From Promethearchaeota archaeon (GTDB lineage: Archaea; Asgardarchaeota; Lokiarchaeia; Sigyniarchaeales; SOKP01), in the NCBI GenBank assembly GCA_019058365.1, contig JAHPZE010000048.1, forward strand, positions 1 through 22,138: DNA of 22,138 bases. The letters are read 5' to 3'. Under the pieces are notes generated by a model, which saw only the letters and a list, made by a program, of their open reading frames with translations, was not told the DNA's origin and searched no databases. The translations under genes were made by a program, and so were the position numbers. Shown here in pieces: positions 2,042 to 20,844 of this stretch (positions within the stretch are counted from its first letter, which is position 1; each line of letters starts with the position of its first letter).

Positions 2042-3322
2042 TTAAAGTAATTTAAATATTTGTCTTAAGGTTAAACTCATTATATATTGTTGAATTTGTC
2101 TTGTACCGCCCCCAATTTCCTGTATTCTGGTTATACCGATTAAATCTTGCATTAATGTATTATCACATACACCTGCTCCACCCATGAGATTCGCACATTC
2201 GTATGCTGCTTTTTGACTCAATTTAGCACTTATTGATTTTAGTTGAGCTGCTGTAGCCATTAAAGCTAAACTAAATTCTTTAGGAAGGGCTCCATATTGT
2301 TTCACTTTTTTATCTACCATTTGACATACATTTAAGGTGGATAATGTAAGATTCATTGTCTCTGCCCATAAATCTGCTAAAGGAAATCCAACCCCTTGAT
2401 ATTTTAAAATTTCTTGATCAAATTGCTTTCTCAAGTTAGCATATATAACAGCATGAGTTATAGCATTCCAAGCTTCTGCTGCGTTTAAAATGACAATTCC
2501 TAATCGTTCCAAATTTAAACCTTCAAAAAGATGTTCTCTCCCTTGACCTGGTTTGCCTATTACATATTCTGGAGGAATTCTTAAATTTGTGAATGTTTCT
2601 TTACCGATATAAATTCGTGGAGTCCATGGAATATTAATTCTTTCCACTTTCCAACCTTCCCAACTTGTATCAACTAAAAATTGTCCCATCGTATTTCCGC
2701 TATTTTGTTCAGACACAGCATAAACTACTGCCCAATCTGCCTTAGGTCCATTGGTTTGATAAATTTTTTCACCATTTAAGATAAAACTTCCATCTTCTTG
2801 TCGTTCGCATGTAGTTAGCATATGAACTGCATCAGAACCTCTTTCAGGTTCAGTGATACAAATACACCCATTTTTCTGCCCAGTAACTAGCTCTTTTAAT
2901 ACCTTTAATCGAATCTCTACATCCTCATGATGCACCAATAGAGGATTGACGGCTAAGACATTAGCTCCCATCCCCATTGCAAGTTGTGGGTCAAAGAAAT
3001 CGGTTGCTAAAGTTCTCATAAATTCAGCTGTTAATCCATATGGTTCATAATTCAAATCAAGAAATTCGAAATTATTTAATCGTGTAACCAGACCCTCTTT
3101 ACCAATTTCAGGAATCCACTCATAAAAATCTTCATTATGAGTGATATTATTTTTCTTTTCAAAGCCAATAAAGAACTTTTGAGCTTTCTTAAGAAAATCT
3201 AAATGTTCTTTTTCCAAAAAAGACATTAAGTTAAAATTCAAGAACTTATACCGATTCTTTAAAGAAAGCTTTTCAAGTATCTCATCATTAATGCATTGTA
3301 CTTCTCCTTTTTTTATTGTCAT
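2042..3322 (-). CDS. Acyl-CoA dehydrogenase family protein (IVD/LCAD-type position of the catalytic Glu)
   Basis: Motifs CITEPERGSDA, LNGEKIYQTNG, RKQFDQ, LMGGAG and EIGGGTRQIQ; Glu in GLNLERL. Confidence 0.92.
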   Translation of the reverse strand: MTIKKGEVQCINDEILEKLSLKNRYKFLNFNLMSFLEKEHLDFLKKAQKFFIGFEKKNNITHNEDFYEWIPEIGKEGLVTRLNNFEFLDLNYEPYGLTAEFMRTLATDFFDPQLAMGMGANVLAVNPLLVHHEDVEIRLKVLKELVTGQKNGCICITEPERGSDAVHMLTTCERQEDGSFILNGEKIYQTNGPKADWAVVYAVSEQNSGNTMGQFLVDTSWEGWKVERINIPWTPRIYIGKETFTNLRIPPEYVIGKPGQGREHLFEGLNLERLGIVILNAAEAWNAITHAVIYANLRKQFDQEILKYQGVGFPLADLWAETMNLTLSTLNVCQMVDKKVKQYGALPKEFSLALMATAAQLKSISAKLSQKAAYECANLMGGAGVCDNTLMQDLIGITRIQEIGGGTRQIQQYIMSLTLRQIFKLL

Positions 3323-3504
3323 TTAAGTCAACTCTTAAAATATAAATTATTTTCTATTAGTGGTAATATTGACCATTTCTCTTAAAATTATTTAATAAAT
3401 CTATATAAAGTAAAGACAAGGAATTAGAAGTATTTAAAATTATAAATACTACTCATTATAATATTAATCATTATAAAATTTACAAATAATTTAGGATTAA
3501 TAAT

Positions 3505-3966
3505 ATGACTGAAAAAATTGTTGTTGCAAATAAAGGATTAATAAAAGCTGATTTTGCTTTTTGGGTTGGACGTTATATGGATAAATTATTTGATGCTTTT
3601 GAAAATGAGAAAATAGTTGGAAATAAATGCCCTAAATGTGGAGATGTTTTTGTTCCGCCGAGAAAAATATGTGGAAAATGCAATGTTACGATCCCTTTTG
3701 ATCAGAACTGGGTAAATTTACCAAATACTGGTACATTAAAGAATTATACTATAACTTATTATAAAATCAACGATAGAACTAGTCGAAAAGTCAAAAAACC
3801 TCAAATTATTGGAATGGTGCAAATTGATGGAAGCAATACATCAATAATTTACCGTTTATTAAATATGGAACCGGAAGAAGTGAAAGTGGGAATGAAACTT
3901 AAAATTATATGGGAAGAAAAAACTACGGGAGCCCCTTCAGATATCAAGGGTTTCGTGAAATTTTAA
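3505..3966 (+). CDS. DUF35-family Zn-ribbon/OB-fold protein (ChsH2-like thiolase/aldolase partner)
   Basis: CPKC-x10-CGKC rubredoxin-like ribbon (VFVPPRKIC) followed by an OB-fold ending VKVGMKLKIIW; lies directly upstream of thiolase-like genes. Confidence 0.9.
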   Translation: MTEKIVVANKGLIKADFAFWVGRYMDKLFDAFENEKIVGNKCPKCGDVFVPPRKICGKCNVTIPFDQNWVNLPNTGTLKNYTITYYKINDRTSRKVKKPQIIGMVQIDGSNTSIIYRLLNMEPEEVKVGMKLKIIWEEKTTGAPSDIKGFVKF

Positions 3967-3969
3967 GAG

Positions 3970-5124
3970 GTGATAAATGAGGTGCAAAAAGTAGGTATTG
4001 TAGGATATTATCAGGTAAAATTATATTCAGATGCAAATTATGGGCGTTATGAAATGATCTTTGAAGCTGTTAGAGGAGCTCTTGATAAAGCGGGATTAAA
4101 GAAAAAAGATATAACTACAGTAATATCTTGTACAAATGATTACTATGATGGAAGAACTATTTCTAATGCTTTTGCTGTAGAAGCAGGTGGTGCATACTTA
4201 GCAGATGAGTCGAAAGTAGAGATGGATGGAGCACACGCGTTATTATATGGTATGATGAGAATTTTATCTGGAAATCATAAATTAGCAGTAATATGGGCGG
4301 GAAGTATGGCATCATGTTTTCCCTATCATTCAGCTAGATTGTTTGAGACTGATCCAACATGGGAAAGACCTACTGCTTATGTTAATGATATTACAGCTTT
4401 AGGATTTCAAATGAGAGCTTATATGAACAAATTTGGAGTTAGTGCTGAAGAGATTGCCGGAGTCGCTGTTAAGAATAGGAAAAATGCTTCAAAAAATCCT
4501 TTAGCATTAAAAGAAGCCCAAAATCCAAATTTAACTATTAAGGATGTTTTAAATTCTGAAATTTATGCTGATCCCGTAAGAGAATTAATGGTGGCACAAC
4601 CATGTGATGGTATTGCGGCATTACTATTAGCTCCTGAGAAACAAGCCTTAAAAATCACAGATAAACCTGTTTGGATTACCGGAGTTGGATATAATCAAGA
4701 TGCATATTATCTTGGTGATAGAAATTTAGCAGAATCCAAATCAATGGAACTAGCTAGCAAAATGGCATACAAAACTGCTGGAATTAAAGATCCATTAAAA
4801 GAAATTGATATTGCAGAAATATTTGAATCAGCTGCTCATGAGGAGTTAATTTTAAAAGAAGCTCTTGGACTTACTGATAAAGGAGAAGGACCAAGCTTAA
4901 ATTCTGAAATTAATGGTGAGTTTCCAATTAATCCTTCTGGTGGAGCCATTGGGGGTAATCCTCCTTGTGGGACGGGATTAATTAGGATTATAGAAGCTAC
5001 TAAACAAATTAGAGGAGAGGCAAATGGATATCAAGTCAAAAATGTAAATAAAGCTATTGCATCTGGGCAGATTGGTATGTGTGCTCAAAATAATATTATA
5101 TATATATTGGAGGGAGGAAATTAA
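3970..5124 (+). CDS. Thiolase-fold (SCP-x type) protein, Ltp4-like, lacking canonical thiolase catalytic residues; true start probably GTG at 3982
   Basis: Thiolase-fold motifs VAVKNRKNASKNP, PCDGIAALLL and INPSGG. ESKVEMDGAHAL sits where the Cys loop should be, as I recall for Ltp4 (ESHVEMD). GNPPCGTG replaces GHP. GAGGTGA at 3967-3973 is positioned as an SD for the GTG at 3982. Confidence 0.85.
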   Translation: MINEVQKVGIVGYYQVKLYSDANYGRYEMIFEAVRGALDKAGLKKKDITTVISCTNDYYDGRTISNAFAVEAGGAYLADESKVEMDGAHALLYGMMRILSGNHKLAVIWAGSMASCFPYHSARLFETDPTWERPTAYVNDITALGFQMRAYMNKFGVSAEEIAGVAVKNRKNASKNPLALKEAQNPNLTIKDVLNSEIYADPVRELMVAQPCDGIAALLLAPEKQALKITDKPVWITGVGYNQDAYYLGDRNLAESKSMELASKMAYKTAGIKDPLKEIDIAEIFESAAHEELILKEALGLTDKGEGPSLNSEINGEFPINPSGGAIGGNPPCGTGLIRIIEATKQIRGEANGYQVKNVNKAIASGQIGMCAQNNIIYILEGGN

Positions 5125-5126
5125 AA

Positions 5127-6374
5127 ATGGGAAGACAAGTTTGTATTGCTAGTGCTGGATTCAGTGAGCATGCTTCAAAAAGATCTGATGTGAGCATGCC
5201 AGAATTAGTGAGTGAAGCTATTGAAGATTGTTTGAAAAAAGTTCCAAGCGTCAGTATTAATGACATTGATGCTTTTGTTAATGGTAATATGCCTGCTTTT
5301 GAAGGTGCTAATATCCCAGAATTATGGATGACCGATTGGATGGGAGCACGTAACAAACCATTAATGAGAATTACTACTGGGGGAACAACGGGAGGATCAA
5401 TCGCTATTGGTGGATATTATACTATAGCTGCGGGATTGCCTGGTATTGATACAATTTTAGCTATAGGGTTTGAGCAACAATCCCAAGGAGACACTAGCAC
5501 AGGTTTAGCATCTGTAGCATATGGAGAAATTTCAGTTCTAAATACTTTAGGTGTTACCTATGACCAATTAACTCAATTATTATCTGCTGGGGCAGCAATA
5601 GGAGTTGCTTCTTATCAAGCGACAAACTATATGCGTAGAAGTAAGATTACGGAAGAAGATCTTGCTAGAGTTGTGGTACAAAATAGACATAATGCTGCTA
5701 AAACATGGTGGGCTCACTTAAAGATGCCAGATCTAACAATAGAAGATGTGTTAGAAACGCCATATATTTCATATCCTTTAAGATATGGTATGGTATGCCC
5801 AGCTTCCGATGGAGCGTGTGCTATGTTATTTACCACTGAACAAAAGGCTAAAGATTTATGTGATATACCAGTTTATGTTAATGGAGTTGGCAGTGTAGCT
5901 AATGAAACAGGAGTACTTGGATATAATGGTAGTGGAGCTGGTCAATTAGATACTTCTGAACAATTAGGTGCAATGAAAACAGCAGAGCTAGCATTTGGTC
6001 AAGCGGGTATTTCTTTTCCAAGAAAGGAAATCGACTATGCTGAGGTCTACTCTCCTTTTCCAAATCAAGAACTTATGTGGATTGAAAGATTAGGTTTATT
6101 CGAGGAAAATACTGCTTCAGAAATGTATGAAACTGGTGTTACAGCTCTAAATGGAGAATTACCAATAAATTGTTCTGGTGGGGTTAATTCGACTAACGCT
6201 ATTGGAGCATCAGCTATGGAAAGACCCGCGGTTGCAGCACTTCAAATAATGGGTAAAGCAAGTAATCAAGTACCAAAAACAGTACATGCAGCAATTGGAC
6301 ATGGATGGGGTGGCGTTATAAATTTAATTACAATGATGGTGATGTCAGATAAGCCAACAAGGAAAATTAATTAA
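5127..6374 (+). CDS. Thiolase-fold protein, Ltp3-like putative acyl-CoA retro-aldolase
   Basis: RITTGGTTGGS (no nucleophilic Cys), CPASDGACAM, AEVYSPF (Tyr in place of HDAF), SGGVNSTNAIGASAM and HGWGG. The pattern matches Ltp3-type proteins as recalled (AEIYxPF, SNPIGASG, HAYGG). Confidence 0.85.
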   Translation: MGRQVCIASAGFSEHASKRSDVSMPELVSEAIEDCLKKVPSVSINDIDAFVNGNMPAFEGANIPELWMTDWMGARNKPLMRITTGGTTGGSIAIGGYYTIAAGLPGIDTILAIGFEQQSQGDTSTGLASVAYGEISVLNTLGVTYDQLTQLLSAGAAIGVASYQATNYMRRSKITEEDLARVVVQNRHNAAKTWWAHLKMPDLTIEDVLETPYISYPLRYGMVCPASDGACAMLFTTEQKAKDLCDIPVYVNGVGSVANETGVLGYNGSGAGQLDTSEQLGAMKTAELAFGQAGISFPRKEIDYAEVYSPFPNQELMWIERLGLFEENTASEMYETGVTALNGELPINCSGGVNSTNAIGASAMERPAVAALQIMGKASNQVPKTVHAAIGHGWGGVINLITMMVMSDKPTRKIN

Positions 6375-6393
6375 AATCTTGAGGTAATAAAAA

Positions 6394-6924
6394 ATGTCAA
6401 AAAGAACACAAAGAAAATCGATGGAATATATTAAAAAAGATTATGTTAGAACTCGAACCACGCCTGGTAGCTGGTACCTTTCCAGTTATAGATATAAGTT
6501 TAATGTTACTCACTTTAAACCGTTTCAAGACAAATTGAAGGAGAAAAAGTTAGTAGGTTTACAGTGCTCGAGTTGTAATCGTGTTTTCTTTCCCCCTAGA
6601 ATTATCTGTGGAAAATGTATGGTAAAACCCGATCAATGGGTGGATTTACGTGAAACAGGGAGAGTTGCTACATTTACTATAACATATCTAAAGGATCCAG
6701 AAACAGGAGAAGTAGTTGAAAGACCCATTGTATTAGTACAGCAAGATGGATCAGATACAACTTTTACTGCTGAATTAAGCCCTGGTGTTAATTATAAAGA
6801 CACTTATATAGGAATGCCAGTCAAAGTTCATTGGGTGGAAGAACCTACAGGGGGATTAATGGATATTCTTTATTATGATTTAGTTGAAGATGATTCAAAA
6901 GATTTAAAATTACGTAAAGACTAA
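6394..6924 (+). CDS. DUF35-family Zn-ribbon/OB-fold protein
   Basis: CSSC-x10-CGKC (VFFPPRIIC), OB-fold ending IGMPVKVHW; SD-like GAGGT at 6381-6385. Confidence 0.9.
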   Translation: MSKRTQRKSMEYIKKDYVRTRTTPGSWYLSSYRYKFNVTHFKPFQDKLKEKKLVGLQCSSCNRVFFPPRIICGKCMVKPDQWVDLRETGRVATFTITYLKDPETGEVVERPIVLVQQDGSDTTFTAELSPGVNYKDTYIGMPVKVHWVEEPTGGLMDILYYDLVEDDSKDLKLRKD

Positions 6925-6981
6925 TTATTTTTTTCTTTTTATTTTAATTCCTTTGCCAAAATGGAAAAGGATTTAAGAGTT
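6925..6981. terminator. Putative oligo-T termination region between convergent genes
   Basis: T-rich tract (ttatttttttcttttt atttt) immediately after the 6924 stop; archaeal intrinsic termination uses oligo-T tracts. Confidence 0.4.
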
Positions 6982-8046
6982 TTATTTACTCAAAAAATTA
7001 CTTAAAACCTTACCTATTTTTTGAATAGAATACTGGATATCATCTTCATCTATTCCATAATGAGTTACAAATCTTATTTTTTCTTTACTTATGTTAAAAG
7101 ATCTAATACCTTCTTTTCCAAGCTCAGTTATTATTTTAAATATGCGTGAGTTCTTCAGAAGTTCAACAATTACAATATTGGTCTCAGGTTTATGTACTTT
7201 TATGGGTAAATCGTAGGATTCAATACCCTCAGCAAATTGTTTGGCATTTTTATGATCTTCCTCGAGTCTTTTAATCCAATTTTGTTCAAGTGCAATTAAA
7301 CCAAAGGACGCTATTATTCCCGCTTGACGCATACCTCCACCAAGCATTTTTCGATATCTCCTGGCATTTGTAATAAAATCTTTTGACCCAGCAACTATCG
7401 ATCCTACTGGACATGAGAGTCCTTTAGATAGGCAAAACATAACACTATCAACATACTTAGTGAATTCTGTAACAGGGACTTTTAGACCTACTGATGCGTT
7501 GAATATCCTTGCTCCATCTAAATGTAATTTTAAATCATTCTTTTTTGAAAAATCCCTCATATCCTTAATTCTTTCTGGTTGAATAATCACACCTCCATGA
7601 TAATTATGGGTGTTTTCTATAGAAAAGAGAGTTGTAGGTGGTTCATGTATATCTTCTTTATCACGAATTAATTTTTGGAGTTGATCAAATCTAGGAATAC
7701 CCTTAAGTGATGGGTAAGTTCTAACCATTAATCCCCCTATACGAGCAGCACTACCTACTTCATTTTTGTATATATGACTCAATTCTTCTAATAGAATCTC
7801 ATCCCCAGGTTTAGTTAGTGAGAGAAGTGAAACTAAATTTCCTTGTGTCCCAGAAGTAACAAATAATGATGCTTCTTTTCCAATAATTTTAGCCGCTTTT
7901 TCTTCCAACTCATTTACCGTTGGATCCTCTCCTTCAACATCATCTCCAATATTAGAATTTTCTAATGATCTAAGCATTTCCCACATCTCTGGAGATGGTT
8001 TGGTGACAGTATCAGAACGTAAATCGACAATTTTCAATTCAATCAA
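6982..8046 (-). CDS. ltaE: Low-specificity L-threonine aldolase (PLP-dependent)
   Basis: DLRSDTVTKP, SGTQGN, ENTHN, LHLDGARIFNA, CLSKGL (PLP Lys), RKMLGGGMRQAG and IRFVTH; TTG start. Confidence 0.93.
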   Translation of the reverse strand: MIELKIVDLRSDTVTKPSPEMWEMLRSLENSNIGDDVEGEDPTVNELEEKAAKIIGKEASLFVTSGTQGNLVSLLSLTKPGDEILLEELSHIYKNEVGSAARIGGLMVRTYPSLKGIPRFDQLQKLIRDKEDIHEPPTTLFSIENTHNYHGGVIIQPERIKDMRDFSKKNDLKLHLDGARIFNASVGLKVPVTEFTKYVDSVMFCLSKGLSCPVGSIVAGSKDFITNARRYRKMLGGGMRQAGIIASFGLIALEQNWIKRLEEDHKNAKQFAEGIESYDLPIKVHKPETNIVIVELLKNSRIFKIITELGKEGIRSFNISKEKIRFVTHYGIDEDDIQYSIQKIGKVLSNFLSK

Positions 8047-8189
8047 GACTTTATTAATAATTATTTAAGTCTCTATAAGGATTTTAAAAATAAAAAAGTA
8101 TGATAAAAAATAACACAAAAGAGAACGGGAAAAATTAAAATTTGTGAAATACTTCATCTATTGAATTTTTTAAATGCTAAGCGAATTTT

Positions 8190-9983
8190 ATGAGTTTCGA
8201 AGTAAAAAAGTATAGTAGTTATAAACATTGGTTTTTATACCATCTTTATAAGCAAAAATATATGGTAATTTCAGTAATATTAGGGATAATTATCCTTACA
8301 TTGACGAGAACACTAATTCCTGTTGTCCTTGGGAATATTATTGATAATTTACTTATAGCTAAAGATGAAACCTATTTAATACTAATGGCATCAATAGGCT
8401 TTTTTCTTTATATTTTACGTAATGCTACGGATTATGGGACTATGATGGCAGGACATAATCTTGGTTTGAAAACTGAGCAAAATATGAGGAAAGAGTTTTT
8501 TGACGCAATTCAATTAAAACCTTTACAATATTATGATAATGCTCGAACAGGAGATTTACAAGCTTTAGCAACTAATGATTTACGTGTAATTAATACTATG
8601 GTTTCCCACGGGAGTTTTTATATTTATCCTTTCTTTCAAGTTGGAATAACTATAATCTTGTTGATTGCGTTTCTTGATATTAGATTAGCTTTAATCTGTA
8701 TTCCTTTTATAATTTTATATATATATTTTATTTTATATTATCGTAAAAAAATTTCCCCATATGCATCAGCACGATTGAGGAAGCACTCCAATCTGGCGGT
8801 TGTTTTACAAGATAGTATTACTGGTGCTGCAGTTGTTAGATCCTTTACAGCAGAAAAAATGGAACGTGAAAAATTCAGTCGAGTAGTATATGCTTTCAGA
8901 GATAATTGGATTGGAGAAACTAAAGTTCAATCTAAATATTATCCTATGTTAATACTATATATTACAATTGGAATAACATTTTTAATAAGTTGTTTATTCG
9001 TTTTTCAAAACACATTATCTATTGGGGACTTGGCAGCAATAAATTTACTTTTGATAACACTTATAGATCCTACTAATACTATATTTTGGGCTACAAATGA
9101 TATGATGAGTGGTTTTGCTGCATGTTCACGTTTATATATTGCCCTTTCAAGAGAAGAAAGTGAACATACTAATGATAAACATATTGAATGGTCTAATGAT
9201 TTCAAAGGTAAAATTGAATTTAAAAATGTTTCATTTGCTTATACAAATGAAAACGAAAAAAATCCCCCTATTCTTAAAAATTTAACCTTCACAATTGAAC
9301 CTTATCAAAGAGTTGCTCTTGTAGGTCCAACGGGTTGTGGAAAGACAACTCTTGTTAAGTTACTCCTACGTCTTTACGATCCACAGAATGGAAAAATACT
9401 AATAAATGGTGTAGACATCCAAGATTACCCCCTTCAAGTATTAAGAAAACATATAGGTTATATAGAGCAAGATATCTATTTATTTTCACGAACAATAAAT
9501 GAAAACATTGCTTTTGGAAAACAAAATGCATTACAAAAAGATATAATTGAAGTAGCAAAACTCGCCCAAGTTGATGATTTTGTACAAAAATTTCCTAAGA
9601 AATATAAAACTGTTGTTGGGGAGAGAGGAACACGCCTCTCTGGCGGAGAAAAACAAAGAGTAGCAATTGCTCGAGCCTTTTTGACTGATCCTGAAATAAT
9701 TATACTTGATGATTCTGTTTCTGCTGTAGATAGCGAAACAGAGGAAAAAATTGGTACTGCGATGGAAAATATTTTGAAGAATAGAACAACATTAATAATC
9801 ACTCATCGATTACACACTATTAGGACTTCTGATAAGATAATAGTGCTTAAACATGGAAAAATTGTAGCAGAAGGTAACCATAATAATTTACTACAAAGCT
9901 CAGAAGATTATAGACGTATTTTTGGAAAACATTTGCTTTTACCGGAATTAACGATCAAGAAAACGTATGAGGTAGAAAAGTAA
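8190..9983 (+). CDS. ABC exporter TMD-NBD half-transporter (type IV), subunit with degenerate Walker B
   Basis: N-terminal hydrophobic helices; Walker A GPTGCGKT, signature LSGGEKQR, Walker B IIILDD (Asp instead of catalytic Glu), H-loop ITHRL. Confidence 0.93.
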   Translation: MSFEVKKYSSYKHWFLYHLYKQKYMVISVILGIIILTLTRTLIPVVLGNIIDNLLIAKDETYLILMASIGFFLYILRNATDYGTMMAGHNLGLKTEQNMRKEFFDAIQLKPLQYYDNARTGDLQALATNDLRVINTMVSHGSFYIYPFFQVGITIILLIAFLDIRLALICIPFIILYIYFILYYRKKISPYASARLRKHSNLAVVLQDSITGAAVVRSFTAEKMEREKFSRVVYAFRDNWIGETKVQSKYYPMLILYITIGITFLISCLFVFQNTLSIGDLAAINLLLITLIDPTNTIFWATNDMMSGFAACSRLYIALSREESEHTNDKHIEWSNDFKGKIEFKNVSFAYTNENEKNPPILKNLTFTIEPYQRVALVGPTGCGKTTLVKLLLRLYDPQNGKILINGVDIQDYPLQVLRKHIGYIEQDIYLFSRTINENIAFGKQNALQKDIIEVAKLAQVDDFVQKFPKKYKTVVGERGTRLSGGEKQRVAIARAFLTDPEIIILDDSVSAVDSETEEKIGTAMENILKNRTTLIITHRLHTIRTSDKIIVLKHGKIVAEGNHNNLLQSSEDYRRIFGKHLLLPELTIKKTYEVEK

Positions 9984-11816
9984 ATGGGTATCTATTCTGG
10001 AACATTAAGTGAACAAACTGTAAGAAAGTATTCGGACCGAGAGCTATTTATTCGTTATATAAAACTTATGGCTCCATTCAAAAGAAATATACTACTTATT
10101 TCTTTATTTGTTTTAATATCATCGATAGCCGAAATTATAAATCCTCTTTTAGTGGGATTTACTGTTGATGAATTGACCAGACTAAATCCAAATATATTAC
10201 TAGCATTCGGGGCAGGATTGGTGTACCTTATTTTATCTATAATCATATGGATAATGTTTTACTTCCAAAGAAGGGAAATTGGTAAATTTGCTCCATTTTT
10301 TCTTGATAAACTCCGAATGGATATTTTTGATAAATTACAAGAGCAAGATATGAGTTTTTTTGATAAATATGAAAGTGGCAGATTAAATTCAAGAGTTTCA
10401 AATGATGCATTGGACTTTGGCAACACAACAATCTTAATAACTGATACAGTGGGTAATTTTCTGATAAGTATTTTGACTTTTGGAATTCTTATTTGGTTAA
10501 ATCTAACACTAGCTCTAATTACATTAGCTTCTGTTCCAATTATTATAGTACTGATGTTTTCTTTAAGAAGATTAGCTCGGATTGTAAGTAGGGCTTATAG
10601 GAGATCAATAGGGAATATCAATGCTGCTATGGTAGAATCAATTGAAGGTATACACGTCTGCAAAAGTTATGGTCAAGAAGCTATAGTTTCTGAGCAGTTT
10701 AATGAGAAAAATACAGAATATTTTAAAACGGGATTTAAATTAACAGCAACAACTCATATGTGGAGACCATTACTCGAGACCGTAGCAGGAATTACTTTAA
10801 TAATTATAGTATATTTTGGTGGTCAATTTGTGTTCCAGGGAATAACAAATCCGGGAACGATCTTTATGTTCATCCTATATCTTCAGAGATTTTTCCGCCC
10901 GATTATGGTAGTTGCTCTTTTTTTTCCTCAACTAAGTGCTGGTATGGCTGCATATGAACGTATACTAGATATTCTTGATTCAGAGCCTAAAATGAAGCAA
11001 AATACACAAACCGTTAAATTAGATAAAATAGAAGGAGAAATTGTCTTTGAAAATGTGGACTTTTATTATAGAGAAAATGAATGGGTATTTAAAGGGTTAA
11101 ACCTAAGAATAGAAAAAGGAGAGAAACTTGCTATTGTGGGTCATACCGGAGCGGGAAAATCAAGTTTAGTAAATCTTCTATCACGTTATTATGAATTTCA
11201 AGGAGGTTCTATTAAAATTGATGGAAATGATATTAGGGATATAAAATTGGATTCCTATAGGAAAAATCTTGGGATAGTTCAACAAGACGTGTTTTTATTT
11301 TCTGGTACAATAGAAGAAAATATCCGTTATGGTAGAAGAGATGCTCCAGAAGAAGATCTTTGGGATGCTATTAAAGCAGTCCATGCTGAAGAACTCATTG
11401 AATACTTACAAGACGGTTTACAAACTCAAATAGGAGAAAGGGGTAGAGGCCTTTCTGCAGGACAAAAACAACTCATTAGTTTTGCTCGAGCACTCTTGAT
11501 GGATCCAAAGATCCTTATCCTTGATGAAGCTACTTCAAGTGTAGATGCGTATACAGAAGCAATAATTCAAGAAGCTCTTGATGTACTATTAGCTGAACAA
11601 ACTTCTATAATAATTGCACATCGATTATCAACTATTTTAAATGCAGATCGTATAATTGTTCTGGAGAAAGGAAAAATCATAGAAGAAGGCACTCATGGAT
11701 CCCTACTCGCTACTGGAGGTAAATATGGGCAGTTGTATAAACAATATTTTGAACATCAAAGTTTGGATTGGCAACCCGAACATGCTGCTCAATCTGCTGG
11801 GACCTCTAAAGAATAA
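9984..11816 (+). CDS. ABC exporter TMD-NBD half-transporter (type IV), partner subunit
   Basis: Walker A GHTGAGKS, signature LSAGQKQL, Walker B ILILDEATSSVD, AHRL. ATG directly follows the TAA of the upstream gene. Confidence 0.93.
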   Translation: MGIYSGTLSEQTVRKYSDRELFIRYIKLMAPFKRNILLISLFVLISSIAEIINPLLVGFTVDELTRLNPNILLAFGAGLVYLILSIIIWIMFYFQRREIGKFAPFFLDKLRMDIFDKLQEQDMSFFDKYESGRLNSRVSNDALDFGNTTILITDTVGNFLISILTFGILIWLNLTLALITLASVPIIIVLMFSLRRLARIVSRAYRRSIGNINAAMVESIEGIHVCKSYGQEAIVSEQFNEKNTEYFKTGFKLTATTHMWRPLLETVAGITLIIIVYFGGQFVFQGITNPGTIFMFILYLQRFFRPIMVVALFFPQLSAGMAAYERILDILDSEPKMKQNTQTVKLDKIEGEIVFENVDFYYRENEWVFKGLNLRIEKGEKLAIVGHTGAGKSSLVNLLSRYYEFQGGSIKIDGNDIRDIKLDSYRKNLGIVQQDVFLFSGTIEENIRYGRRDAPEEDLWDAIKAVHAEELIEYLQDGLQTQIGERGRGLSAGQKQLISFARALLMDPKILILDEATSSVDAYTEAIIQEALDVLLAEQTSIIIAHRLSTILNADRIIVLEKGKIIEEGTHGSLLATGGKYGQLYKQYFEHQSLDWQPEHAAQSAGTSKE

Positions 11817-11911
11817 TCATTGTTTTTAATTTCCTATAACTATAATATTTATCTTGGAATTGAACTCAATCTTTCAATTTTTTATAACTGATTAGAAAAA
11901 AGAGAAAATAA

Positions 11912-12283
11912 TTATTTTGTTTTTAATATAATTGTTATTGCTCTTGTTAGGCGTATGACATCCATAACTTTTCCTTTTTCAACCATTATTTGCTCTCTTG
12001 AAATTGCATGAGTAAAATCTCCTTTACCTTCGCAAATTCTCACGAGTGCTGCGGGATCTCCAGACATTACTATATTAATTCCAGATTTAGTACCTTTAGC
12101 CAGTGTTACTTTTCGATTCTTGATTTCTAAAAAGAAAGGATCTTCATTTTCAAGATTAAATTGAAAATACATTTCCCAATCAACATTTTTTCCCGCAATA
12201 TTTGTTACAAATACGTCTTGAGCTTTTGGATTAGTGTTTAGTTTCTCTACAATTTTATTTAAATTTTCATATGCAATTCCCAT
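11912..12283 (-). CDS. SCP2 sterol/lipid-binding domain protein (start revised to ATG 12283; track gives 12322)
   Basis: 123 aa with an SCP2-like pattern (FQFNL...FFLEIKNRKVTLAKG...INIVMSGDPAALVRICEGK...AI...IMVEKG). The ATG lies 2 nt after the upstream stop and is preceded by GGAGGG. Confidence 0.78.
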   Translation of the reverse strand: MGIAYENLNKIVEKLNTNPKAQDVFVTNIAGKNVDWEMYFQFNLENEDPFFLEIKNRKVTLAKGTKSGINIVMSGDPAALVRICEGKGDFTHAISREQIMVEKGKVMDVIRLTRAITIILKTK

Positions 12284-12285
12284 TA

Positions 12286-12780
12286 TTATTTCCCTCCTTC
12301 GTATTCTGGTTTTGATATCCAATTTTCATATTCATCCTCAGGGACAAAGAAAAAGTCAGTCATTTTACCTTCTCTTTCTTTGTTAAAAACGGCTTTAACT
12401 TTTTTCCCCTTTTTAATTTTTGAAGGAACTAAATTCTCAGAGAATATACCTTGAAGTAAGGCGGTTTCTGCACCATCAAGTTTAATAAATCCTATTCCAT
12501 ATGGTATTGCTTTAATAAAAGCTGAAGTGGTATACCACACTATCGTGCTAACCTCTATGGTTCCGGTTTGTTTGAGTTCCACCCAATCTGCTGGGGCATA
12601 ACAATCAGAGCAATTAATCCTAGGAGGCATCCATGTTTTTCCACATTTAGCACATTTCGTCCCTAATAACTTTTTATTATTCAATAACTCAATAAAAAAT
12701 TTAGACTGTCCTCCCATTGTATATTTATAATTAATCCTTAATACGTCTCTTATTTGATGATCCTGAAATTCTTCATTCAT
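12286..12780 (-). CDS. DUF35-family Zn-ribbon/OB-fold protein
   Basis: CAKC-x10-CSDC (TWMPPRINC), PYGIGFIKLDGAET, IKKGKKVKAVF. Confidence 0.9.
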   Translation of the reverse strand: MNEEFQDHQIRDVLRINYKYTMGGQSKFFIELLNNKKLLGTKCAKCGKTWMPPRINCSDCYAPADWVELKQTGTIEVSTIVWYTTSAFIKAIPYGIGFIKLDGAETALLQGIFSENLVPSKIKKGKKVKAVFNKEREGKMTDFFFVPEDEYENWISKPEYEGGK

Positions 12781-12782
12781 GA

Positions 12783-14033
12783 TTATTTCATCCCCTCCTC
12801 ATTTGCCATTACGATAATAGCAGCATATGCTGCTCCAGGCCCTCCTATAGAATGTGAAATGGCTCGACCTTTTTCAATAGATACTTGGTGCTTACCTGCT
12901 TCTCCCCTTAATTGAAATGCAGCTTCTCCAGTACTCATAATTCCTGTGGCCCCAACAGCATGTCCACATCCAATTAAACCCCCTGATGGGCAACATGGAA
13001 GTTCTCCATCTAACCAAGGCCCTTCTCCTTGTTTTTCAAAAGTTTTTTCAATCCACGGACCACCCTCCCCAAACGGAACAAACCCAAGTTCTTCATAACT
13101 AATGACTTCCTGTCCACTAAATGCATCATGTAATTCTGCCAAGTCTATTTGGTTTTTTATTTTATTATAATCTAGTCCCGCCATTTTATAGGCAGCTTTT
13201 GCCGCATATATATTTGAATAAAGTCTCCCCATATCTTCTCTATTTCCTATAAAACAATCAGTATTTGCTGCTGCTACCCCAGTAATCCAAATTGGTTTTT
13301 CAATCTTTAATTCTCTCACTTTTTCTTCACTTGCGAGAATTATTGCTGCAGAAGCTTCTGAATATAAACAACAATCTAACATTTTGAATGGATAACAGAT
13401 TATTCTTGAATTCATGACATCTTCAACACTTATATTCATTGGAGATTGTGCTTTAGGATTGTTTATCGCATTTCCATGATTTTTAACGCTTACATAGGCC
13501 ATTTGTTCTTCAGTAGGATTGCCAAATTCTTCATAATGGGCATTTACCATAGATACATACGAACTAGCTGCCATCATACCCATAGGATATTCATAGGTCA
13601 TATCGGCTGAATAAGCTATAGCATTAAGAACTTCTGGTGTAGTAGTTCCCGTTTGTTCATCATAACAATCATTACATTTTTCCAGTCCTATGCAAAGACA
13701 TAGATCTGAAAGGCCTGAGGCAACTTCAGCATAAGCCATTCGAACAGTATATCCACCTGTAGCTCCTCCTGTTGCAATTCTAGTTCCTGGTTTATTATTC
13801 ATGCCTAAGTAACTATTAGTAAAAATATCCGGCATAAATTGACGTTCAAAAAGTTCATTGTAAATGCCATATACTGTGGATTGAAGGTCTTTATGAGTTA
13901 TTTCTGCCCCATTCTTATTGGCATCTTCTAGAGCTAACTTAGTGCCATCATAAGCTAATTCAAAATAAGTTTTATCCAAATATCTTGCTTTAAAAGGAGT
14001 TATCCCTATTCCTATAATCGCAACTTTTTTCAA
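12783..14033 (-). CDS. Thiolase-fold (SCP-x type) protein lacking the nucleophilic Cys
   Basis: KVAIIGIG, RIATGGATGG, VKNHGNA..NPKAQ, ELHDAF, PSGGLIGCGHAVGATG and HSIGG; TTG start. Confidence 0.88.
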   Translation of the reverse strand: MKKVAIIGIGITPFKARYLDKTYFELAYDGTKLALEDANKNGAEITHKDLQSTVYGIYNELFERQFMPDIFTNSYLGMNNKPGTRIATGGATGGYTVRMAYAEVASGLSDLCLCIGLEKCNDCYDEQTGTTTPEVLNAIAYSADMTYEYPMGMMAASSYVSMVNAHYEEFGNPTEEQMAYVSVKNHGNAINNPKAQSPMNISVEDVMNSRIICYPFKMLDCCLYSEASAAIILASEEKVRELKIEKPIWITGVAAANTDCFIGNREDMGRLYSNIYAAKAAYKMAGLDYNKIKNQIDLAELHDAFSGQEVISYEELGFVPFGEGGPWIEKTFEKQGEGPWLDGELPCCPSGGLIGCGHAVGATGIMSTGEAAFQLRGEAGKHQVSIEKGRAISHSIGGPGAAYAAIIVMANEEGMK

Positions 14034-14181
14034 TATTTTCCACTTTTGTGATTTTCTTTTTATTATTTTTATAGATTAATTAGTGATTGGTTTTTCTTTT
14101 ATTTAATTTTTAAAGTAAAGAAAATTAGAAAAATAAATTAATAATACATTAAATATAATAAAAAATGAATTATTTGAAAAA

Positions 14182-15555
14182 ATGAAACTCATTCAATTTC
14201 CAAAGGGATTTATTTGGGGTGCGGCAACCTCAAGTTATCAAATTGAAGGAGCATGGAACGAAGATGGAAAGGGAGAAAGTGTATGGGATGTTTTTAGTCA
14301 TACACCAAGTAAAATAAAAAATGGAGATACTGGTGACGTTGCTTGTGATCATTATCATCGGTATAAAGAAGATGTTCAATTAATGAAAGAAATTGGACTT
14401 AAAGCTTACAGATTTTCTATATCATGGCCTCGTATTTTCCCTAATGGCAAAGGAAAAGTCAATCCAAAAGGTGTTGCGTTCTATGACAATTTAATAAATG
14501 AGCTAAAAGAAAATCAGATTGAGCCATTTATCACATTATATCATTGGGATTTGCCTTTTGAACTTAATAAAATTGGAGCATGGGATAATCGTAAGGTGGT
14601 AGAAGCTTATGTTGAATATGCAAAATTCATATTTAATCACTTTGGAGATCGTGTAAAGTTTTGGATTACTTTTAATGAACCTTTAGTCTTTATTATTTAT
14701 TTCTATTTTCTTGGGTTATATGGTAAAAAGGAGATCTCAAAAACATTGTATGCAACTCATCTAGTTAATATAGCAAATGCAAAAGCTATAGAGACTTATC
14801 GTTCATCAGAATATGCCGACGGAAAAATTGGTATTACACTTAATCTGGATCCTGTATATCCCAAAAAAGATACAACATTAGATGAAAAAGCTGTCAAAAT
14901 TGTTGATGGATTTAATAATCGTTGGTTTTTAGATCCAATCTTTCAGTCAGAATACCCCATTGATATATTATCTATACTCCAAAAAAATTATAATTTTCCT
15001 TCAATACCAAAACAAGATTTGGATATATTAAATCAAAATCATATAGATTTTTTAGGAATAAATAATTACTCAGCCACTCGTATAGGAATTAGGAAAGAAG
15101 AAGAATTAAACAATCCATTTAAGCTTCTATTACCGAAAAAAGCTGAGAAGAGGACAGAGGTTTCAGAGATGGGATGGGAAGTCTATCCTGATGGTTTTTA
15201 TGATCTTCTAAGGCGAGTGGATAAAGATTATAATCACCCTCTTATTTACATTACTGAAAATGGTATGGCATGTAGAGATGATCAAATTACTAATAATATT
15301 ATTCAAGATGATGATCGCTTGAGTTATTTAAAAAGATATTTTGCTGCTGCAAATAAAGCAATGAAAGAAGGTGTAAATTTAAAAGGTTATTTCGTTTGGT
15401 CCTTGATGGATAATTTCGAATGGATAGAGGGATATTCTAAACGCTTTGGTTTAATCTATGTTAATTTTGATTCCCAGGAGAGATTATGGAAGAAAAGTGC
15501 TTTCTGGTATCGTGATGTTATTAAAAACAATAGTTATGAATTAAGTACTATTTAA
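14182..15555 (+). CDS. Glycoside hydrolase family 1 beta-glucosidase/beta-glycosidase
   Basis: FIWGAATSSYQIEGA, ACDHYHRYKED, YRFSISWPR, TLYHWDLP, acid/base TFNEP, nucleophile ITENG and DNFEW. No obvious signal peptide. Confidence 0.95.
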   Translation: MKLIQFPKGFIWGAATSSYQIEGAWNEDGKGESVWDVFSHTPSKIKNGDTGDVACDHYHRYKEDVQLMKEIGLKAYRFSISWPRIFPNGKGKVNPKGVAFYDNLINELKENQIEPFITLYHWDLPFELNKIGAWDNRKVVEAYVEYAKFIFNHFGDRVKFWITFNEPLVFIIYFYFLGLYGKKEISKTLYATHLVNIANAKAIETYRSSEYADGKIGITLNLDPVYPKKDTTLDEKAVKIVDGFNNRWFLDPIFQSEYPIDILSILQKNYNFPSIPKQDLDILNQNHIDFLGINNYSATRIGIRKEEELNNPFKLLLPKKAEKRTEVSEMGWEVYPDGFYDLLRRVDKDYNHPLIYITENGMACRDDQITNNIIQDDDRLSYLKRYFAAANKAMKEGVNLKGYFVWSLMDNFEWIEGYSKRFGLIYVNFDSQERLWKKSAFWYRDVIKNNSYELSTI

Positions 15556-16865: not shown

Positions 16866-17978
16866 TCATTTAACTTGAAGAAATATATTATAGCAGATAT
16901 CTTGTATCGTTTGAAAAGTATTTATCTCATTTACATTTCCTATCATAGTTAAACCCATATTATTAAAATTCATACAGATCGTAGTTATTTTCTCTCCTCC
17001 GAGGGATGTACTAAATAAAACTCTATTATATGTCTCCTCGCTTATTTTTTTTGATGAGGTTAATACACTAATTGTTTCTGGAATATAATCTGAACAATCA
17101 TATTTTTCATCAATAATTTTTGAGTAGATGATTTTTCCAACTAGATCTACAAGAAATATTTGTTTGATTCTTTTATCCCAAATTAATCTTTCAAATTTTT
17201 CTATAATTTTTTTGGGTTTTTTAATATATTTCTCTTTACTCTTAAAGAAATCTAATGTCAAAAATTCATCCTCTATATTCTCTGGTAGTTGGTATTGTTT
17301 TATTATTATTATTTTTTTTCTGATCTCTACTAAAACGTTCTCATTTCTAACCGTAGTTAATAAAATCCAATTCAATTTCTCATTAAGATTATTTTGATAT
17401 AAAAATTGGGAAGAATTAACGACTAAGGGAATAAGATAACCAAGTTTTTCTTTATTTACAAATTGTTTGGCATGAATATAAAAAATATGTCCCCCTTTTG
17501 GTTCAAGAAATACAACTGATTTAAAATTCCCCCCTTTTTCAATTTGATTAATAGAATCAAATAAAGTATCTAATCCATGGGAAAGGATAATTTCCTTAAT
17601 ATGTTCATCAAATTTATGAAATTTTGTTACTTCCCCATCAAAATCTTTATTAAGAAAATCTCCAAATTCTTTAGTAAAACTCTCCATTATATCGTGAATA
17701 ACTGAATGCAACAATTCTATCAATTCATCATTCTTAGTTGTTGCTACAAAAGTGATTTTTTGAAAGGATTCAGAGAATTTTTCAAAAATAATATTAGTTT
17801 CCTTCAGTTTTAAGGATTTTATGTCTTCTCCTCTTTCTATACTTGCAAAAGTATTCATTGCTGTTAAAAAACCGCTAATTAAGTCATCATCACTTGTTTC
17901 GTCTTGTTTTTTTAGATGCCAACTGTACAAAAGTGACCCTGCTTCATTAATAATAAATAAATCGTCCATATAATACAC
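16866..17978 (-). CDS. Longin-like domain plus two roadblock/longin-like domains (eukaryotic signature-type protein)
   Basis: N-terminus LFIINEAGSLLYS...LISGFLTAMNTFA...F...F...FDGEVTKFHKF is a typical longin pattern. Two further units begin FKSVVFLEPKGGHIF and IKQIFLVDLVGKIIYS. Start is GTG 17978 or ATG 17969. Confidence 0.7.
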   Translation of the reverse strand: MYYMDDLFIINEAGSLLYSWHLKKQDETSDDDLISGFLTAMNTFASIERGEDIKSLKLKETNIIFEKFSESFQKITFVATTKNDELIELLHSVIHDIMESFTKEFGDFLNKDFDGEVTKFHKFDEHIKEIILSHGLDTLFDSINQIEKGGNFKSVVFLEPKGGHIFYIHAKQFVNKEKLGYLIPLVVNSSQFLYQNNLNEKLNWILLTTVRNENVLVEIRKKIIIIKQYQLPENIEDEFLTLDFFKSKEKYIKKPKKIIEKFERLIWDKRIKQIFLVDLVGKIIYSKIIDEKYDCSDYIPETISVLTSSKKISEETYNRVLFSTSLGGEKITTICMNFNNMGLTMIGNVNEINTFQTIQDICYNIFLQVK

Positions 17979-19279: not shown

Positions 19280-19828
19280 ATGAATGATACAAATATACAG
19301 TATGTATTCAAAATTACGGTAATTGGAGATAGTGCTGTTGGAAAAACATCATTAATTAAACAATATACTCAAGCTTCATTTGAAAATGATTATATTTCTA
19401 CGATAGGCGCTCAATTCTCTATTTACAATGAAGAGATCGATGGTGATAATTGTAAATTATTTTTCTGGGATCTTGCTGGTCAAAAGGAATTTGAAATCCT
19501 ACGTTCTCAGTTTTATAGAGAAAGTAAAGCAGCTATCATTGTTTATTCTCTCGAAGAAAATAATCTTGGAATCGAAAGTTTTAGACATTTATCTGAATGG
19601 TATAAAGACATCAAAAAATATTGCGGAGAAATCCCTGTTATCATTTTTGCTAATAAAGTTGATTTAATTGATGAAAATGATTTGGATGATTCAGAAATTC
19701 AAAATTTCGTTAAAGTGAATAATTTTGTAGGAGTTTATCGAACTTCTGCGAAAACAGGTAAAGGGGTAACTAATGGATTCCGGAAAATAATTAAAGTATT
19801 ACTTACTCAGTATAAGAACAAAATCTAA
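19280..19828 (+). CDS. Rab-like (Ras superfamily) small GTPase without a C-terminal prenylation motif
   Basis: G1 GDSAVGKTS, G2 YISTIG, G3 WDLAGQ, G4 NKVD and G5 TSAKTG; RabF-like IGAQF, KLFFW and FYR; ends QYKNKI. Confidence 0.93.
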   Translation: MNDTNIQYVFKITVIGDSAVGKTSLIKQYTQASFENDYISTIGAQFSIYNEEIDGDNCKLFFWDLAGQKEFEILRSQFYRESKAAIIVYSLEENNLGIESFRHLSEWYKDIKKYCGEIPVIIFANKVDLIDENDLDDSEIQNFVKVNNFVGVYRTSAKTGKGVTNGFRKIIKVLLTQYKNKI

Positions 19829-20094: not shown

Positions 20095-20844
20095 ATGAGA
20101 TTAGAAAGAGGTGTGTTATTTATTTCTCAAGATGAAATGAAAGATCTAACGACAAATTTAGATAATAAAGTGATAAAAGCTCTACAGATTAAGGTAGATT
20201 CTTATCAGACAGAGATCAGTGAATTAAAAAAGATTCTTGAAAAAAAAGATGAAGAAATTGCGAATATAGCAAAATTTAAAGATGTATTGAGTTCTGAATT
20301 AGAGGAGACCAAAAATAATTTAGAAGTTAAAACCAATAAATTAGAAAAAATAGATTCTGAAGTTTATGATTTAGAGAAAACAATCACTATAAAAGAAAAA
20401 GAAACTAAGAAATTGTGTGCAGAAATTGATGAATTAAAACAAAAAATTGAAGAATTAAGTGATGATGTCGCAAAAAAGGCAAATAAAATAACAGAACTTA
20501 GCGAACAACTCACAATAAAAGAAAATAAAATAACAGAACTTAGTGAACAACTCACAAAAAAAGAAAATAAAATAACAGAACTTAATAATACATTAGATGG
20601 AAAAGAAAAAATCATTGAAGAACAAAAGGATAAATTGGAAAAAGCTGAAACTGAATTATCAGCTTTAAGACCACCCGAACAAACTGAATACACTAGCGAA
20701 GAGCGTTTAATTTGCCCTAAATGTGGTGCAAAAGGGAAAGATTTAAAGGTTGAAGAAGATAAAAGCAAAGTACTTGGTTATATTGGTCACAGCCCTCTCT
20801 ATAGTAAAGTGAATGTTTGCAAACAATGTGGTCAGAAGTTTTAA
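20095..20844 (+). CDS. Long coiled-coil protein with a C-terminal Zn ribbon
   Basis: About 175 aa of E/K-rich heptads, then LICPKCG...VCKQCGQKF. Confidence 0.85.
   Translation: MRLERGVLFISQDEMKDLTTNLDNKVIKALQIKVDSYQTEISELKKILEKKDEEIANIAKFKDVLSSELEETKNNLEVKTNKLEKIDSEVYDLEKTITIKEKETKKLCAEIDELKQKIEELSDDVAKKANKITELSEQLTIKENKITELSEQLTKKENKITELNNTLDGKEKIIEEQKDKLEKAETELSALRPPEQTEYTSEERLICPKCGAKGKDLKVEEDKSKVLGYIGHSPLYSKVNVCKQCGQKF
20481..20584 (+). repeat. Intragenic 42-bp tandem repeat, about 2.5 copies (NKITELSEQLTxKE)
   Basis: Units at 20481-20522, 20523-20564 and partial 20565-20584; the first two differ at only 2 positions. Confidence 0.92.

Follow-up and report, generated by a model that had tools for sequence, protein, structure and literature searches.

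What does an operon that couples two thiolase-fold genes to two DUF35 genes do in an Asgard archaeon: does it encode a thiolase, or an enzyme with another chemistry? Asgard genomes are studied for their lipid metabolism owing to the lipid divide and eukaryogenesis, and the thiolase/DUF35 pairs found in them have been tallied as potential modules of fatty-acid synthesis (10.1101/2024.07.05.601840). We addressed this question for the four-gene operon at positions 3505-6924 of contig JAHPZE010000048.1 (assembly GCA_019058365.1) from a Promethearchaeota archaeon. The window, i.e. the stretch of DNA analysed here, is this entire 22-kb contig (C27; 22,138 nucleotides) of a 4.74-Mb genome with a marker completeness of 100%. 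An initial annotation had read the operon as a heteromeric aldolase related to Ltp4 and Ltp3 of actinobacteria and its host as a probable Asgard archaeon; the latter agrees with the matches of the window proteins to metagenome-assembled genomes (MAGs) of Promethearchaeota/Lokiarchaeia. The operon is a real and conserved variant of the genetically known Ltp4/Ltp3-DUF35 module, and a retro-aldol lyase is the function that we favour for it.

Genes of the operon

The operon comprises D1, a DUF35 protein with a CxxC...CxxC zinc ribbon and an OB fold (3505-3966, 153 aa); A, an Ltp4-type SCP2-thiolase-fold protein (open reading frame (ORF) 3970-5124, 384 aa); B, an Ltp3-type SCP2-thiolase-fold protein (5127-6374, 415 aa); and D2, a second, distinct DUF35 protein (6394-6924, 176 aa). 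All four genes lie on the + strand. Pfam assigns Thiolase_N and the SCP-x-type Thiolase_C_1 to both A and B, and the DUF35 domains zf-ChsH2 and OB_ChsH2_C to both D1 (PF12172, PF01796) and D2. The genes, their order and their ORF gaps (3 nt for D1-A, 2 nt for A-B and 19 nt for B-D2) stand as first annotated, but the start of A needs correction. The sequence GAGGTGA at 3967-3973 resembles a ribosome-binding site and lies 8 nt 5' of an in-frame GTG at 3982, and A read from this codon has 380 aa, in agreement with the N-termini of its orthologues. Because of this placement and this length, we prefer GTG 3982 as the probable start of A, which would make the D1-A gap 15 nt. Ribosome-binding-like boxes (GGAGG and GAGGT) are also located upstream of B and D2. 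The motifs quoted in the initial annotation are present in the translations (KVEMDGAHAL in A; RITTGGTTGG, AEVYSPF, STNAIGAS and HGWGG in B).

Loss of the thiolase active site

Active-site residues were compared in an alignment of all nine SCP2-type thiolase-fold paralogues of this genome. The CASG nucleophile, HDCF and GHP motifs are retained together in only two of the nine (on contigs C16 and C13). In A, the nucleophile loop has a three-residue deletion (VEM---DGAHA), the HDCF position reads FESA and the GHP position GNP; in B, the nucleophile is replaced by Gly (TTGGTTGG) and the other two positions read YSPF and TNA. The HDCF histidine is replaced by Phe in A and Tyr in B, and the GHP histidine by Asn in both. 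All residues on which membership among the thiolases rests (the nucleophilic Cys, the acid/base Cys and the two His) are gone from A and B, and these losses hold throughout the A and B clades. The alignment with Cys-bearing paralogues bears out the earlier observation that neither protein has the thiolase Cys or the GHP His. Since an acyl-cysteine intermediate cannot form, the predicted A/B complex is not a thiolase. As had been anticipated of automated pipelines, JGI nevertheless annotates orthologues as acetyl-CoA C-acetyltransferase.

The old active site has diverged differently in the two proteins. E306, N357, R366 and Q373 never vary in a set of 20 diverse homologues of B, at least 90% of which also have Y308. 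Tyr308 (AEVYSPF) occupies the position of the HDCF histidine, which is the site of the catalytic-base Tyr in the steroid aldolases Ltp2 (YDHF) and Sal (YDCY), and Asn357 stands at the GHP-histidine site of thiolases. In A, the position of this Tyr/His is filled by F, Y, S, T, H, C, D, G, E or N across 29 A-type proteins, and no conserved residue is found at any canonical catalytic position. Altogether, seven of the nine SCP2-type thiolase-fold genes in this genome are Cys-less, and four of these form Ltp4/Ltp3-type pairs.

Related genes occur at two further loci. The window has a second operon (11912-14033, -), whose products are a thiolase-like protein of 416 aa, a DUF35 protein of 164 aa and an SCP2 protein of 136 aa. 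The 416-aa protein has GGATGG in place of the Cys, yet retains ELHDAF and GHAVG, a site unlike that of A and B and like that of Sulfolobus tokodaii ST0096 (PDB 4YZO); in another genome (G183, locus L014), an operon of this type directly adjoins a DUF35-A-B-DUF35 cassette. On contig C16 (383319-384785), a Cys-bearing thiolase gene lies beside a 480-aa frame that resembles HMG-CoA synthase and contains a DUF35 OB domain, and this pair probably represents the mevalonate-pathway thiolase and an HMG-CoA synthase fused to DUF35.

Kinship with actinobacterial Ltp4 and Ltp3

When the genome was searched by BLAST, Ltp4-type queries had their best matches in A and in A' from a second cassette (see below), whereas Ltp3-type queries had theirs in B and B', and these matches were reciprocal. 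The loops around the former active site are also held in common: HVEMDGAWA in Ltp4 vs. KVEMDGAHA in A, and AEIYVPFS, SGGVLS-NPIGASG and GHAYGGG in Ltp3 vs. AEVYSPFP, SGGVNSTNAIGASA and GHGWGG in B. B carries the whole site signature of Ltp3 (Gly for Cys, Tyr in AExYxPF and Asn in SGGxxS/T-N-x-IGAS), and A shares the shortened nucleophile loop xVEMDGAxA with the Ltp4 family.

We placed both proteins in a tree of 105 rows (IQ-TREE quick search, LG+C20, SH-aLRT support), the rows of which came from a search begun with B, such that A-type proteins, taken from that search and from the loci, are unevenly sampled. The A-type clade (32 rows, SH-aLRT 97) includes the Ltp4-type proteins, with the nine-row clade of A joining the Ltp4 clade at 94, and the B-type clade (51 rows, SH-aLRT 90) includes the Ltp3-type proteins. 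A third clade (SH-aLRT 100) holds the true thiolases, the Cys-less paralogues that keep their His and the Ltp2-type protein of Nocardia farcinica (YDHF). B falls outside the strict actinobacterial Ltp3 subclade, its sister being P0126 from Actinomycetota MAGs, and the trees of A and B are congruent. The phylogeny proposed as a check thus groups A and B with Ltp4 and Ltp3 and apart from thiolases and Ltp2, and together with the reciprocal matches, the common loops and the gene order it upholds the description of A as Ltp4-like and B as Ltp3-like.

In each of the three actinobacterial loci that we fetched (Streptomyces clavuligerus, Tsukamurella and Nocardia farcinica), a tandem DUF35 gene (~310-340 aa) is followed by an NF005924 gene and then an NF006180 gene, so that the adjacency of Ltp4 and Ltp3 to a tandem-DUF35 gene claimed initially was seen in all three. 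A divergent CoA ligase gene lies beside each module, accompanied in Tsukamurella by crotonase and P450 genes. From this context and the M. tuberculosis map, we take these loci to have the Rv3521-ltp4-ltp3 layout beside fadD19/echA19. In M. tuberculosis, KstR binds the Rv3520c/Rv3521 intergenic region and ltp2-4 belong to the kstR regulon (PMC1995591). Knock-outs in Rhodococcus, as cited in PMC6273163 and PMC8708139, indicate that Ltp3 is needed for degradation of C24-branched sterol side chains.

Conservation and spread of the cassette

In all 13 Asgard loci fetched, the A-type gene lies directly 5' of the B-type gene with DUF35 genes adjacent, and in nine of them the pair is flanked by a DUF35 gene on each side as in the window. 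The first list of homologues of B was filled up by Loki orthologues (82-98% identity); more widely, orthologues with at least 69% identity occur in two Asgard families (f1, f12) and homologues with 43-46% identity in two further families. Identity to orthologues is highest for B (69-87%), followed by A (61-81%) and then D1 and D2 (45-74%). Orthologues of D1 and D2 form separate old clades (SH-aLRT 95 for D1 and 99 for D2), which indicates that the two DUF35 proteins are not interchangeable and agrees with the initial view of two DUF35 domains encoded as separate genes. From the DUF35 tree, neither D1 nor D2 could be matched to one particular half, N- or C-terminal, of the tandem protein of actinobacteria.

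Genomes carry up to three cassettes, all three on one contig in genome G144. The second, paralogous cassette of the present genome is on contig C5 (27766-31027; positions 11767-15028 of locus L024) in the order A', B', DUF35, DUF35, and is nearer to actinobacterial Ltp3 than is the B of the window (39-41% identity). A natural fusion of a B-type domain with a tandem DUF35 also exists (P0204, 731 aa, from a representative library). The nearest non-Asgard relatives of B are P0126 and Dehalococcoidia proteins. P0126, a bacterial protein of 411 aa with 44% identity to B, also contains B's lid insertion and branches next to the Asgard B clade as its sister group (SH-aLRT 99). Inter-domain transfer is likely in view of this sister position, which suggests that cassettes of this kind have passed between Asgard archaea and uncultured Actinomycetota.

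Gene context and the question of substrate

The two cassettes belong to a single island of ~45 kb, because C5 and C27 are collinear with one stretch of a genome from the same genus (L029, L030). The order there begins with a gene for a beta-keto-acid cleavage enzyme (BKACE), A', B' and two DUF35 genes, and continues with genes for an OYE-type reductase, a crotonase, an aldehyde:ferredoxin oxidoreductase (AOR), an Fe-alcohol dehydrogenase, SCP2, a ferredoxin-reductase-like protein, a CrtI-like FAD enzyme, a crotonase, a CoA ligase and an acyl-CoA dehydrogenase (ACAD); D1, A, B and D2 follow, divergent from the ACAD gene, and then a threonine aldolase gene. On the C5 contig of the present genome, a CoA ligase gene is immediately upstream of A'. 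In the window, the ACAD gene (2042-3322, -; Pfam Acyl-CoA_dh_M and Acyl-CoA_dh_1) is the divergent neighbour of D1 and might encode an upstream step, and a long-chain-type acyl-CoA ligase gene (78-1787, -; Pfam AMP-binding) might encode an activating step. Judged from the predicted gene products, the same-genus run would suit a path from alcohol through aldehyde, acid, acyl-CoA, enoyl-CoA and hydroxyacyl-CoA to cleavage.

We rejected gene context as evidence of the substrate, both because neighbours change between genera and because the candidate enzymes have many paralogues. The genome encodes ~20 CoA ligases, 11 ACADs, 19 crotonases and 16 AORs, and with ligases and crotonases in such numbers their adjacency says little about what is cleaved; a CoA ligase gene also lies beside the cassettes L014-L016. 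The exception is BKACE (PF05853): it has just four paralogues in this genome, one of which (C5 24784-25683) is beside a cassette, and its orthologue (68-76% identity) adjoins cassettes of several genera, in four other genomes (L011, L014, L017 and L018); a functional link between BKACE and the cassette is possible on these grounds.

No PF01039 carboxyltransferase was found in this marker-complete genome by a search that was positive in 12 of 14 control genomes. The removal of branches by carboxylation, as proposed for C24-branched sterols, would therefore lack its carboxylase here. The genome has eight strong 3-hydroxyacyl-CoA dehydrogenase genes elsewhere. A search for a branch-point carboxylase had been suggested as a check on the initial proposal that the substrates are steroid-, hopanoid- or isoprenoid-like tertiary beta-hydroxyacyl-CoAs. 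That proposal is not supported by the outcome of this search, the changing flanks and the many CoA ligases and crotonases.

Other features of the window

The ACAD gene and D1 are separated by an AT-rich divergent intergenic region (3323-3504) that, as read from its sequence, probably contains promoters. A T-rich tract 3' of D2 (6925-6981, +) is a likely transcript end and is followed by a convergent gene for a PLP-dependent GntG/low-specificity threonine aldolase (6982-8046, -), the adjacency of which to D2 is kept within the genus (L011, L030). Two neighbouring MsbA-like ABC half-transporters, each with permease and ATPase, are encoded at 8190-11816 (+) and are possibly a lipid or drug exporter pair. 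Further along, three eukaryote-like signature genes are found close together, those for a longin-domain protein of the Fuz/Mon1 type (16866-17978, -), for a Ras/Roc-family small GTPase (19280-19828, +) and for a coiled-coil protein (20095-20844, +).

Discussion

We consider it somewhat probable that the operon encodes a retro-aldol lyase in which B would cleave the substrate, A would be an inert, pocket-forming partner and D1 and D2 would act as clamps. A and B would pair as a thiolase-fold heterodimer on which D1 and D2 each dock, as modelled on the DUF35 docking of Ltp2, Sal, BbsB and archaeal thiolases, and the products of all four genes would form one complex. A 3-hydroxyacyl-CoA, perhaps supplied through the CoA ligase, ACAD and crotonase encoded nearby, would be split into a short acyl-CoA and an aldehyde or ketone. 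In Ltp2 (Y294DHF) and Sal (Y302DCY), the Tyr is the base that deprotonates the 3-hydroxyl, and the role of the acid falls to Tyr344 in the former and to Cys304 in the latter (PMC12329534). This base Tyr is present in B (Tyr308 of YSPF) and not in A, and B would accordingly be the catalytic subunit of the predicted enzyme. A is probably structural, given its lack of conserved residues at catalytic positions and its faster evolution, and might shape or widen the substrate pocket. What the sequences show directly is the gene anatomy, the homology, the loss of the thiolase residues, the upkeep of the cassette as a unit and a fusion joining a B-type protein to tandem DUF35; we infer complex formation, the aldolase chemistry, this division of labour and all that is said here of the substrate.

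Several observations weigh against this interpretation. A scores 185 bits against NF005924 (PRK07937), for which the cut-off is 419, and its best match is PRK06065 at 221 bits; B scores 349 bits against NF006180 (PRK08313), by far its best NCBIfam match, for which the cut-off is 514. Actinobacterial members score 550-596 and 713-750 bits, respectively. Because their scores fall under the curated cut-offs, A and B are distant relatives, and not members, of these families. The His of Ltp4 (AELHAPF) is Phe in A (AEIFESA), and B lacks a second catalytic residue like those of the known aldolases, with Pro310 at the site of Sal Cys304 and Ltp2 His296 and Asn357 at that of Ltp2 Tyr344. For the actinobacterial proteins themselves, which had been called aldol-lyases needed for degradation of C24-branched side chains, the need stands on knock-outs, but in PMC6273163 and PMC8708139 "aldol-lyase" is a label derived from the knock-out phenotypes. 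The pathway reading is weakened by the flanking genes, including the ACAD gene, which are kept within the genus and differ between genera; no hydratase or aldehyde-handling gene beside the cassette is conserved beyond the genus.

The AlphaFold2 single-chain models are confident (pLDDT 92.3 for A and 90.9 for B, with only 64-75 over lid residues 121-160 of B, where the insertion itself spans about residues 122-150), and their closest solved folds are the Pyrococcus furiosus thiolase 7YVY, S. tokodaii ST0096 (4YZO) and the M. thermolithotrophicus thiolase 6ESQ. Ltp2 (6OK1) came 31st with either model, and Sal (9MYR) was 46th with B and 11th with A; all SCP2-type thiolases and aldolases score alike in such searches, which do not discriminate function, and there was no Ltp3/Ltp4-type structure among the solved matches. 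Two metatranscriptome libraries contain contigs 90-99% alike over 3509-6850, of which two bridge B and D2, and none over 6851-8200, a weak hint of a transcript end. These contigs come from relatives (word shares 0.13-0.19), may include DNA carry-over and do not allow strand, ends or level to be read, and they provide weak evidence that the operon may be expressed in relatives.

Other explanations of the operon were considered. An ordinary ketothiolase (KT)/DUF35 pair acting in beta-oxidation or in archaeal CoA-dependent fatty-acid synthesis would account for the Pfam thiolase domains, the DUF35 neighbours and the acetyl-CoA C-acetyltransferase labels, and Schmerling et al. report a mean of 3.8 KT/DUF35 pairs per Asgard genome as well as a KT/DUF35 core of the fatty-acid synthase in Sulfolobus. 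However, the clades of A and B have throughout lost the two active-site Cys (nucleophilic and HDCF) and both His, all of which the C16 and C13 paralogues keep, and elsewhere in the genome there are three classical thiolase genes and two of the Cys-bearing SCP2 type, such that we regard an ordinary thiolase as extremely improbable. A non-catalytic role, in which the complex would bind acyl-CoA or lipid as a carrier or scaffold and pass substrates to other enzymes, would be consistent with the loss of every canonical catalytic residue, the absence of a conserved polar residue from the old active site of A and the SCP2 lipid-carrier genes near the cassette, both in the window and in the collinear contig. 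Such a role is nevertheless improbable: none of the other three proteins is as well conserved as B, whose old active-site loops carry invariant polar residues (E306, Y308, N357, R366 and Q373), and a passive function would hardly explain four co-inherited genes whose DUF35 products fall into two distinct clades.

If A and B do act as an enzyme, they might carry out a different reaction on CoA esters, such as a biosynthetic aldol or Claisen-type condensation, a malonyl-type decarboxylation or a step coupled to BKACE. The Tyr/Asn site of B is unlike those of Ltp2 (Tyr/Tyr) and Sal (Tyr/Cys), TbSLP (YDCF) only slowly decarboxylates malonyl-CoA, and the BKACE orthologue lies beside cassettes at L011, L014, L017, L018 and C5. 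We think a reaction of this sort possible but unlikely: no carboxyltransferase was found that could provide carboxylated CoA esters, the ltp3/ltp4 knock-outs, which are the sole functional evidence for the family, indicate catabolic C-C cleavage, and aldol reactions are reversible, so that direction alone would not constitute a separate chemistry. A much narrower possibility is that the operon does the work of Ltp3/Ltp4, taking branches off side chains of the sterol, hopanoid or isoprenoid type via a tertiary 3-hydroxyacyl-CoA. Homology to Ltp4/Ltp3 would agree with this, and the genus-specific run with its CrtI-like FAD oxidoreductase, SCP2, Fe-alcohol dehydrogenase and AOR would fit a long isoprenoid alcohol. 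Heteromers with one inert subunit are a pattern among enzymes for bulky steroid side chains (ChsH1-ChsH2 and ChsE4-ChsE5). Yet without PF01039 the carboxylation step of the actinobacterial C24-branch and Atu/Liu-type routes is unavailable, the isoprenoid-like gene context is confined to the genus, B is sister to proteins of uncultured Actinomycetota and not to the Ltp3 proper of sterol clusters, and a true Ltp4/Ltp3 module also occurs on Streptomyces plasmids, outside any sterol cluster. We therefore judge this narrow substrate range very unlikely.

Returning to retro-aldol cleavage by B, one speculative use for it, which we hold to be rather unlikely in this specific form, would be a carboxylase-free, aldolytic beta-oxidation of 3-hydroxyacyl-CoAs that are barred from the dehydrogenase and thiolase steps, in anaerobic Asgards with several cassettes per genome. 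As an equally doubtful example, the 3-methyl-branched chains of isoprenoid or archaeal lipids might be so degraded, and the ketone or aldehyde released might pass to ferredoxin-linked aldehyde oxidoreductases. Aldol cleavage of non-oxidisable acyl chains, if it does occur, would give branched lipids in sediments one more path of anaerobic degradation. Counts of thiolase/DUF35 pairs and acetyl-CoA acetyltransferase labels overstate thiolase capacity, given that seven of nine SCP2-type genes here are Cys-less. Small size, high conservation and division among four genes make the archaeal module a convenient one in which to find the reaction of Ltp3/Ltp4.

Comparison with known systems

In the PDB, the leading match by both structure and sequence is S. 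tokodaii ST0096 (4YZO), which likewise misses the nucleophile Cys. It differs in keeping the His in ELHDMA and GHP, which is the site type of the paralogues on C17 and at 12783-14033 in the window and not that of A and B. The archaeal thiolase/DUF35 complexes, namely the thiolase-HMGCS-DUF35 complex of M. thermolithotrophicus (6ESQ) and the Saci_1121/1120 core of the fatty-acid synthase of S. acidocaldarius, are similar in fold (TM-score 0.86 to 0.92) and in DUF35 docking. In contrast to A and B, these thiolases retain catalytic Cys and His, assemble as homodimers with a single type of DUF35 and synthesise or cleave 3-ketoacyl-CoA, and their counterpart in this genome is the C16 gene.

Ltp2-ChsH2 (6OK1), a retro-aldolase for the C3 side chain of steroids, and the bile-acid aldolase Sal-Shy (9MYR) resemble the operon products in their Cys-less SCP2-thiolase fold and in the Tyr at the HDCF-His position (in B). 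Both have a DUF35 partner, and one is predicted for A and B from gene adjacency at all 13 loci and from a single fusion of a B-type domain with a tandem DUF35. Unlike A and B, Ltp2 and Sal are homodimers of one catalytic chain with DUF35 fused to a MaoC hydratase, and the Ltp2-type sequence falls in the thiolase clade, apart from A and B.

A further counterpart is the Rv3521-type module of tandem DUF35, Ltp4 and Ltp3 beside FadD19 and EchA19. There, the DUF35 domains are in one tandem gene upstream, whereas the archaeal ones are in two separate flanking genes; archaeal B also has the lid insertion and TWWAH instead of NPYAH, and the cassettes occur in an archaeal host, up to three per genome, with neither a sterol cluster nor a carboxylase found in the present one, where no search aimed at steroid ring-degradation genes was made. 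Nevertheless, both have two adjacent Cys-less genes, a short A-type gene followed by a Tyr-bearing B-type gene, and both share the loops VEMDGA, YxPF, S/T-N-x-I-G-A-S and GHxxGG, two DUF35 domains and an adjoining CoA ligase gene.

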